Positions 42,651 through 43,064 of a stretch of DNA of 64,000 nucleotides are shown here, one piece after another. The DNA is from a virus: positions 32,001 to 96,000 of the IMG/VR virus record IMGVR_UViG_3300020057_000027, one strand, 5' to 3'. Every line of letters begins with the position of its first letter. Within the stretch, counting starts at the first letter, position 1. Below the pieces are notes generated by a model. That model worked only from the letters and a program-made list of their open reading frames with translations. It had not been told where the DNA came from and did no database searches. The position numbers and the translations under genes were made by a program.

Positions 42651-42757
42651 TTTGCAAAATAAAGATTGACAAACGTAGTGAACGTGTGTTATTCTATATA
42701 AAGATAGTCTGATGAAAGGGAAAATCAACTAGGGATAACTTCAACTATCCCATCGGG

Positions 42758-42840
42758 CACACCTGATGAGTCCATAAGGACGAAACAGGGGAGTTAATAG
42801 AGCGTAATAATCGGATCGATTGCTCCTCCCCTGTCGTGTG
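42758..42840 (+). ncRNA. Type I hammerhead ribozyme
   Basis: CACAC-CTGATGA-GTCC ATAA GGAC-GAAA-CAGGGGAG...CTCCCCTG-TC^GTGTG; predicted cleavage after C42835. Confidence 0.9.
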
Positions 42841-43064
42841 ATGAAGGACTTAAGGCCTTAAACCTTATCATCGTTCTTCGGTTGGCAAGTTTCGTCTAAA
42901 CATTTATTGTTGCGCTTTCAGTGACAGCTTAGATTAAGGACGAGTATTAGATGGAATCGCGGGTATTTCCACGCCGAGCATTGCGAAAGCGTACATGTGA
43001 ACACTACCGTATAGTTTGCCTAGTTCTGTAAGATTGATTGGGCTTTTTTGTTTTTAGATATTGT

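Follow-up and report, generated by a model that had tools for sequence, protein, structure and literature searches.

A complete type I hammerhead ribozyme was identified in the tRNA island of an uncultured T4-like phage, where it lies between two clusters of tRNA genes and is followed by a conserved non-coding RNA and the gene for tRNA-Glu. Judged from its sequence there is little doubt that this hammerhead is real, and it is a variant form of a known class in a context undescribed in the literature searched. As to its function, we consider it fairly probable that it is a working ribozyme in an early-type unit and would give a defined 5′ end to a conserved folded RNA leading into tRNA-Glu. The DNA analysed here, referred to as the window, is a stretch of 64,000 nucleotides corresponding to bases 32001-96000 of a viral record of 164,106 bp, the ends of which are direct terminal repeats.

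The phage was assigned to the T4-like phages on the basis of the gp32, gp59, T4 baseplate and RNase H families present in its relatives, and the closest cultured phage as judged by PhoH is the Stenotrophomonas phage DLP6 (55% identity). The RNA genes around the hammerhead are arranged as follows, the tRNA clusters being called by both ARAGORN and Rfam:

38748-39141: tmRNA, at the head of the RNA-gene island
42123-42459: tRNA cluster 1
42477-42655, plus strand: upstream small-RNA unit with a TTGACA-17-TATACT promoter of its own, directly preceding the hammerhead unit
43114-44053: tRNA cluster 2
43114-43188, plus strand: tRNA-Glu (UUC), called by ARAGORN and Rfam, the first gene 3′ of the hammerhead unit in every relative

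The tmRNA of the window is full-length with the tag ANSNDFADYALAA; full-length tmRNAs are likewise encoded in the related contigs L006, L014, L020 and L024, and a permuted tmRNA was found in L008, a more distant phage of 175 kb. The upstream small-RNA unit gave no Rfam match over 42477-42655, and the unit with its promoter string CGGCATATATA is kept in L020, L023, L024 and L111. It has a long outer stem and has the short motifs GGCGGGU and CUUAGAGUUU in common with the RNA 3′ of the hammerhead. On the plus strand of the whole genome CTGATGA occurs 37 times and its complement TCATCAG not once, base composition predicting about 10 of each; this skew probably reflects codon usage, nearly all genes sharing one strand.

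The preliminary description of this DNA, made from the sequence without database searches, had reported a type I core with CUGAUGA, GAAA and a GUC site at 42833-42835 as well as an extra hairpin in loop III. All core elements were found exactly there, and the extra hairpin was confirmed at 42800-42825, inserted in helix III. The ribozyme comprises the following elements:

42758-42840, plus strand: type I hammerhead ribozyme with complete core and three helices, as read from the sequence
42758-42762 with 42836-42840, plus strand: helix I, 5 bp, CACAC with GUGUG
42763-42769, plus strand: core segment CUGAUGA
42770-42781, plus strand: helix II, 4 bp, GUCC-AUAA-GGAC
42782-42785, plus strand: core segment GAAA
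42786-42793 with 42826-42833, plus strand: helix III, 8 bp, CAGGGGAG with CUCCCCUG
42800-42825: hairpin inserted in helix III, GAGC (42800-42803) with GCUC (42822-42825), tip UCG-GAU-CGA at 42811-42819
42833-42835: cleavage triplet G42833, U42834, C42835, where U16.1 is 42834 and C17 is 42835
42835/42836, plus strand: predicted self-cleavage site between C17 and G1.1, from hammerhead core geometry

Every base required of the core is present (C3, U4, G5, A6, N7, G8, A9; G12, A13, A14; the pair A15.1-U16.1; and a non-G base at H17), the pair G10.1-C11.1 being formed by G42770 and C42781 and the N1.1-N2.1 pair by C42762 and G42836. The strands follow one another in the order helix I 5′ strand, core, hairpin II, GAAA, hairpin III, UC, helix I 3′ strand, so that helices II and III are closed by loops and helix I is open and carries both the 5′ and the 3′ end of the motif, which is the type I topology. 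Hammerhead cleavage leaves one product with a 2′,3′-cyclic phosphate end and the other with a 5′-hydroxyl end. When the 164-kb genome was scanned with a purpose-made descriptor of type I hammerheads, a single match was obtained, the site at 42758-42840; order-1 Markov genomes with the same dinucleotide make-up contained 0.01 relaxed matches per genome, and none of 300 contained a match as good.

Folding predictions were likewise consistent with a hammerhead. The three-way junction was the unconstrained minimum free energy (MFE) structure or nearly so in four of five sequences and within 1.2 kcal/mol of it in all five, the window being the exception, in which the active fold is predicted to be less stable by 1.2 kcal/mol than a competing hairpin burying CUGAUGA. 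In the constrained fold, helix I can be extended beyond an unpaired GGG(C) of its 5′ strand. The length of loop II ranges from 4 to 10 nt among the relatives, and with five sequences no conserved contact between helix I and loop II, the tertiary contact to which hammerheads owe fast cleavage at physiological Mg, could be defined.

In an Infernal search against Rfam, one of the checks that had been proposed for the ribozyme, it was missed at the gathering scores. A match to RF00008 (Hammerhead_3) was obtained with 24.1 bits and an E value of 0.012, covering the core and helix II only and lying below the gathering score of 48.5, and RF00163 (Hammerhead_1) gave no match at E ≤1. This shortfall is explained by the 32 nt inserted in helix III. 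Model R1, a covariance model of five complete distinct hammerhead sequences (see below for the relatives), scored 100 bits on the hammerhead of the window. One further RF00008 match, in the 405-kb phage L013, was rejected as it lies within coding sequence and has no CUGAUGA.

Relatives of the locus were reached via homologues of two flanking ORFs, a 216-aa ORF at 41301-41951 and a 59-aa ORF following tRNA-Glu. This approach yielded short metagenome contigs covering the island (L020, L022, L023, L024, L111, L112 and L113) and the near-identical strains L107-L110. Other routes led to no relatives: a blastn search of 42460-43113 against GenBank phages gave no match, searches of IMG/VR with PhoH and the 216-aa ORF gave only phages without the island or contigs ending before it, a metagenome scan with the promoter string of the upstream unit returned 57 unrelated matches and no relative, and the helix III insert used as a pattern in viral contigs returned only two chance matches in G+C-rich coding regions. 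Every contig that reaches the locus has the same order, namely tRNA-Leu(CAA), small-RNA unit, extended -10 promoter, leader hairpin, hammerhead, non-coding RNA, mini-ORF, tRNA-Glu and 59-aa ORF. Complete homologues of the hammerhead, each between the small-RNA unit and tRNA-Glu, are present in L022, L023, L024 and L111; a fifth is split, L020 stopping inside helix III and L112, from the same sample, beginning there with an overlap of 5 nt. These two contigs are probably adjacent; they were left out of the pair counts given below for the hammerhead, which refer to the five complete distinct sequences.

In the alignment of these five sequences the core bases are invariant except for position 7, which is changed from U to C in L022 (CUGACGA); this is a position that the class allows to vary. 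The GUC and the following GUG at the predicted cut are invariant in all complete homologues. The 17 helix pairs are paired in 98.8% of cells and 9 of them show compensatory change, counted over five sequences and thus few events; in controls in which the 3′ partner was shifted by one to three columns, no more than 53% of cells were paired and no more than one pair covaried. Compensatory changes were found in all three helices, helix I occurring as CACAC/GUGUG or AGCAC/GUGCU, helix II as GUCC/GGAC or GCCC/GGGC, and helix III varying in 6 of its 8 pairs. Adding 14 further phage hammerheads left this picture of pairing and covariation intact. The core bases are retained even though the flanking protein of the relatives has an identity of only 61-68%, and in strains of 98-100% identity the ribozyme is unchanged and the region 3′ of it variable.

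The hammerhead belongs to a unit with a promoter and a leader of its own:

42666-42695, plus strand: sigma-70-type promoter with extended -10, TTGACA (42666-42671), 18-nt spacer, TG (42687-42688), TATTCT (42690-42695)
42702-42757, plus strand: 5′ leader with the hairpin GGGAUA-ACUUCAAC-UAUCCC at 42732-42751, which remains on the predicted 5′ cleavage fragment

The promoter scored 10 of 12 with the TG present in a promoter scan. TTGACA-18-TATTCT had been claimed to lie about 60 nt upstream of the hammerhead, and is indeed there, the hammerhead beginning 63 nt 3′ of the promoter. In every relative TG-n-TA...T is found at a constant distance from the ribozyme, the promoters of L111 and L023 reading TTGACT-17-TATAGT. 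Transcription is inferred to start near 42702. The leader hairpin of L111, GGGCA-UCUUCAAC-UGCCC, has a loop identical to that of the window, and the hairpin at the corresponding place differs in L020, L022 and L024. ORFs of at least 30 aa are absent from both strands of 42729-43197, and the earlier view of a promoter-bearing non-coding unit within a phage tRNA island was borne out.

The RNA 3′ of the predicted cut is composed of a variable and a conserved part:

42841-42946, plus strand: variable insertion of ~110 nt between the predicted cut and the conserved RNA core
42952-42971, plus strand: hairpin A, a 5-bp stem (42952-56 with 42967-71) with the conserved 10-nt loop UCGCGGGUAU
43001-43017, plus strand: conserved unpaired segment ACACUACCGUAUAGUUU, of the form ACACU-N-CC-GUAGAGUUU
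43018-43055, plus strand: hairpin D including the U tract, stem 43018-24 with 43037-43, conserved loop with CUGUAAGAUUG, then U6-G-U5

The window, L111 and L023 contain the insertion; L022, L024 and L112 lack it, their core starting 8 nt 3′ of the predicted cut. Even L109, a strain of 98% identity, differs within the insertion by a further 9-nt insertion and several substitutions. The preliminary description had proposed a structured RNA of about 215 nt closed by a helix of ggcaagtt with agtttgcc. Such a helix can be drawn (42884-42891 with 43013-43020, 8 pairs including 2 G-U) but clashes with the terminal hairpin, uses a segment missing in three relatives, and lies in a 221-nt RNA that as a whole folds no better than its shuffles (z = +0.88), so that this closing helix had to be abandoned. 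What stands of the structured 3′ RNA is its core of ~100 nt (42947-43053 in the window), which is conserved in all six sequences; the proposed extent of ~215 nt does not, about 110 nt of it being the variable insert. The idea of a conserved non-coding RNA as 3′ product is supported by this core, and the hairpin with T run expected near 43050 was found as hairpin D, with its stem at 43018-43043 and its U tract at 43044-43055.

Within the core, all five stem pairs of hairpin A change on both sides (96.6% paired, six sequences), and its loop G(C/A)GGGUAU is near invariant. A variable hairpin separates hairpin A from the conserved single strand. Hairpin D has a conserved loop, CUGUAAKAYUG, and two-sided changes in 5 of 6 stem pairs. 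When the six sequences were realigned with a covariance model of the core (model R2), 10 of the 11 pairs of the two stems covaried and 89% of cells were paired, compared to at most 62% in slid controls. Loop A may in addition form a pseudoknot, 42959-42963 pairing with 43006-43010: this candidate is 90% paired, with one swap of C-G to A-U (four versus two sequences), a single event, and its remaining pairs are invariant. Model R2 detected nothing beyond the six family members when run over 52 loci including other hammerhead loci and the island of DLP6, and the core had no Rfam match.

Several identities of the 3′ RNA were considered and rejected. Neither ARAGORN nor Rfam RF00005 called a tRNA in 42836-43113, and a tRNA or degenerate tRNA-His was dismissed for this reason and for the lack of an acceptor-stem partner. 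The loop of hairpin D is unfit as a mimic of the tRNA-Tyr anticodon loop by its stem and loop geometry, and its possible pairing with the anticodon arm of tRNA-Glu was discarded as the complementarity is lost in L023.

From the sequence, fold, conservation and synteny described above we infer the cleavage, its end chemistry and its purpose as follows. Transcription of the unit would start near 42702, and once helix I has formed, the RNA would cut itself between C42835 and G42836. The 5′ fragment, ~133 nt of leader and ribozyme, would be discarded with a 2′,3′-cyclic phosphate end, leaving the downstream RNA with a 5′-hydroxyl and a core made up of hairpin A, the variable hairpin, the conserved single strand and hairpin D; in the phage of the window the U tract would follow, and then a Glu-rich mini-ORF and tRNA-Glu. 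The job of the ribozyme would be to produce a defined 5′ end without RNase P or RNase E, and the resulting RNA would exist as a small RNA on its own or else form the head of a tRNA-Glu precursor. For the 5′ end of tRNA-Glu itself, which begins 278 nt after the predicted cut in the window, the ribozyme would be dispensable, since RNase P would trim this tRNA anyway. Ligation or circularisation of the product found no support: the unit has a single ribozyme, and searches of the phage for an RtcB or Rnl2-type ligase were negative; a P-loop kinase match was below the cut-off.

The region between hairpin D and tRNA-Glu bears on whether the 3′ RNA is an entity in its own right. Alternatively, the ribozyme would be real but the 3′ RNA would serve as the 5′ untranslated leader of a transcript comprising the mini-ORF, tRNA-Glu and the 59-aa ORF, its 5′-hydroxyl end for example altering stability or translation, or uncoupling this transcript from read-through of the upstream tRNA cluster; we regard this as rather unlikely. 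The mini-ORF is the following:

43065-43106, plus strand: predicted mini-ORF MLNGLERLETERA followed by a stop, 13 codons of which three are Glu codons, ending 7 nt before tRNA-Glu

Its frame, ML..LE.L(E/Q).E.ER(A/S)-stop, is open in all six sequences despite nucleotide changes and a shifted stop, and such conservation speaks for the leader, as does the presence of tRNA-Glu 3′ of the unit in every relative (7-20 nt from the end of the mini-ORF across the six sequences). In L022, L024 and L112 the U tract is lacking and a strong Shine-Dalgarno sequence, GAGGA or AAGGA, follows within ~10 nt of hairpin D, then the AUG of the mini-ORF. A promoter-like site was not found between hairpin D and tRNA-Glu, in the window at 43056-43113, and because the short forms have neither a U tract nor such a site, transcripts of their tRNA-Glu must come through the hammerhead unit, in keeping with the tRNA-Glu precursor that the preliminary description had offered as an alternative. 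Against the leader stand the window, L111 and L023, which have a terminator-like U tract after hairpin D and a weak or absent ribosome-binding site for the mini-ORF. In the window this putative terminator consists of a stem of 7-8 bp, 3 of them G-U, and U6GU5, and the site was not listed by the terminator scan; it may release a free RNA of ~215 nt or only attenuate transcription. Moreover, the mini-ORF is a predicted frame, and loops as invariant as those of hairpins A and D point to a specific partner, which a simple leader would not need. We prefer to regard the 3′ RNA as a conserved folded RNA that would be supplied with its 5′ end by the hammerhead.

Another explanation would be that the ribozyme acts mainly on transcripts reading through from tRNA cluster 1 and the small-RNA unit, as an insulator or as a maker of 3′ ends. 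No terminator was found after the upstream small RNA, the sole terminator-like site (42526-42542) lying in the 5′ part of that unit, and phage hammerheads have been proposed to split polycistronic transcripts into units (PMC3088659; PMC6765202). Yet the promoter of the hammerhead unit is kept in all relatives, the upstream RNA, if cut at 42835, would keep ~180 nt of promoter, leader and ribozyme and its 3′ end would be poorly defined, and the conserved sequence of the short forms lies behind the cut, from 8 nt onwards, and not before it, all of which makes this explanation improbable. Finally, a chance or decayed motif that no longer cleaves would agree with the score under the Rfam gathering threshold and with a cleavage that is as yet a prediction, but is very improbable in view of the chance expectation, the core bases kept among the diverged relatives and the compensatory changes across all three helices.

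The preferred role of the hammerhead, the making of a 5′ end, is supported by the placement of three further hammerheads next to phage tRNA genes:

L115 1512-1646 (vB_SmaS-DLP_6, KU682439.2, about 112514-112648): hammerhead of DLP6 with CCACC, CUGAUGA, GCCG..CGGC, GAAA and a helix III of 2+7 bp
L125 (IMGVR_UViG_3300047160_005224, 166,771 bp) 1181-1319, reverse strand: hammerhead with GUC at 1242-1244 and G-1 at 1245, followed by an ARAGORN tRNA-His from 1246
L111 1117-1166: second hammerhead of this contig, a compact type I form located 8 nt past the 3′ end of tRNA-Asp, its helix III being 3 bp long and its site GUA

The hammerhead of DLP6 was matched by model R1 in the tRNA island of this phage with 26.4 bits; it reached only 19.6 bits with Rfam HH9 and is not annotated in the record. 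The 3′ strand of its helix I, GGUGG, coincides with positions G-1 to G4 of tRNA-His(GTG) as annotated, and the predicted cut between 112572 and 112573 of the record would leave exactly G-1 and tRNA-His, a tRNA with C73 and an encoded CCA. L125 was found by a search for hammerheads with a helix I of the DLP6 type; the arrangement at tRNA-His is the same as in DLP6, with helices II and III of different sequence. The second hammerhead of L111 is followed by ~300 nt of ORF-free sequence and has no counterpart in the window. Since no tRNA was found within 1.5 kb of 14 other phage hammerheads detected by core pattern, the link to a tRNA island is specific to the phage group of the window. Type I hammerheads of another family, which have long inserts in helix III, were also noticed in the IMG/VR contigs L025, L027, L029, L030, L031, L036, L039 and L042, each of them following a conserved string, GAGCUAUGGCGC(U/A)U(C/U)UG, and none near tRNAs.

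Hammerheads are known from intergenic regions of phages and prophages, their function having been called unclear by a survey in 2011 (Perreault et al., PMC3088659) and a review in 2019 (PMC6765202), and those described in phages flank protein genes in long transcripts (PMC3088659). With the type I hammerheads of bacteria and phages (RF00163, clan CL00010) the ribozyme of the window shares the core, the junction with open helix I, the GUC and an intergenic site in a phage; it differs from them by the 32-nt insert in helix III, a promoter of its own, its place in a T4-like tRNA island and the conserved non-coding RNA that it heads. None of the papers that we found deals with hammerheads located in tRNA islands or at the 5′ ends of tRNAs, many subscription papers being beyond the reach of the search. 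Theta ribozymes, minimal HDV-like ribozymes at the 3′ ends of phage tRNAs, have been proposed to replace protein or RNP in end-making (Kienbeck et al. 2024, PMC10879173). They are likewise small self-cleaving ribozymes in phage tRNA arrays with a proposed function in making RNA ends, but belong to another class and cut at tRNA 3′ ends, whereas the predicted cut of the window hammerhead would generate the 5′ end of the RNA that follows it. A hammerhead directly adjoins a tRNA in DLP6 and L125 only, the tRNA being tRNA-His in both.

A likeness of context alone exists to the stable RNAs C and D of phage T4, in that small non-coding RNAs lie amid T4-type tRNA genes. These RNAs (species 1 and 2) are small non-coding RNAs of the T4 tRNA cluster with unknown function, and we know of no ribozyme leading either of them. 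Engineered fusions of hammerheads to tRNAs are laboratory constructs that yield tRNA transcripts with exact 5′ ends. As in these fusions, helix I in DLP6 and L125 uses the first bases of the tRNA, but in these two it is a natural arrangement; in the window, unlike in the fusions, the downstream RNA is not a tRNA as judged by ARAGORN and Rfam.

It is possible, if doubtful at present, that large phages, T4-like and others, use hammerheads generally for RNase P-independent 5′ ends in their tRNA islands, including the G-1 of tRNA-His, and at the same time that the ~100-nt RNA, pseudoknotted as suggested above, represents a new class of phage regulatory RNA whose 5′-hydroxyl matters for its stability or for its action on the tRNA-Glu unit. 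Hammerheads carrying inserts in helix III slip under the Rfam thresholds. Two uncatalogued small RNAs are added to a T4-like tRNA island, and the ribozyme of the window is tied to a specific conserved product within this island. Its counterpart at tRNA-His of DLP6 would have a concrete and testable job in a cultured phage, the formation of 5′ ends without RNase P, and 5′-end making by hammerheads would mirror the making of phage tRNA 3′ ends by theta ribozymes.
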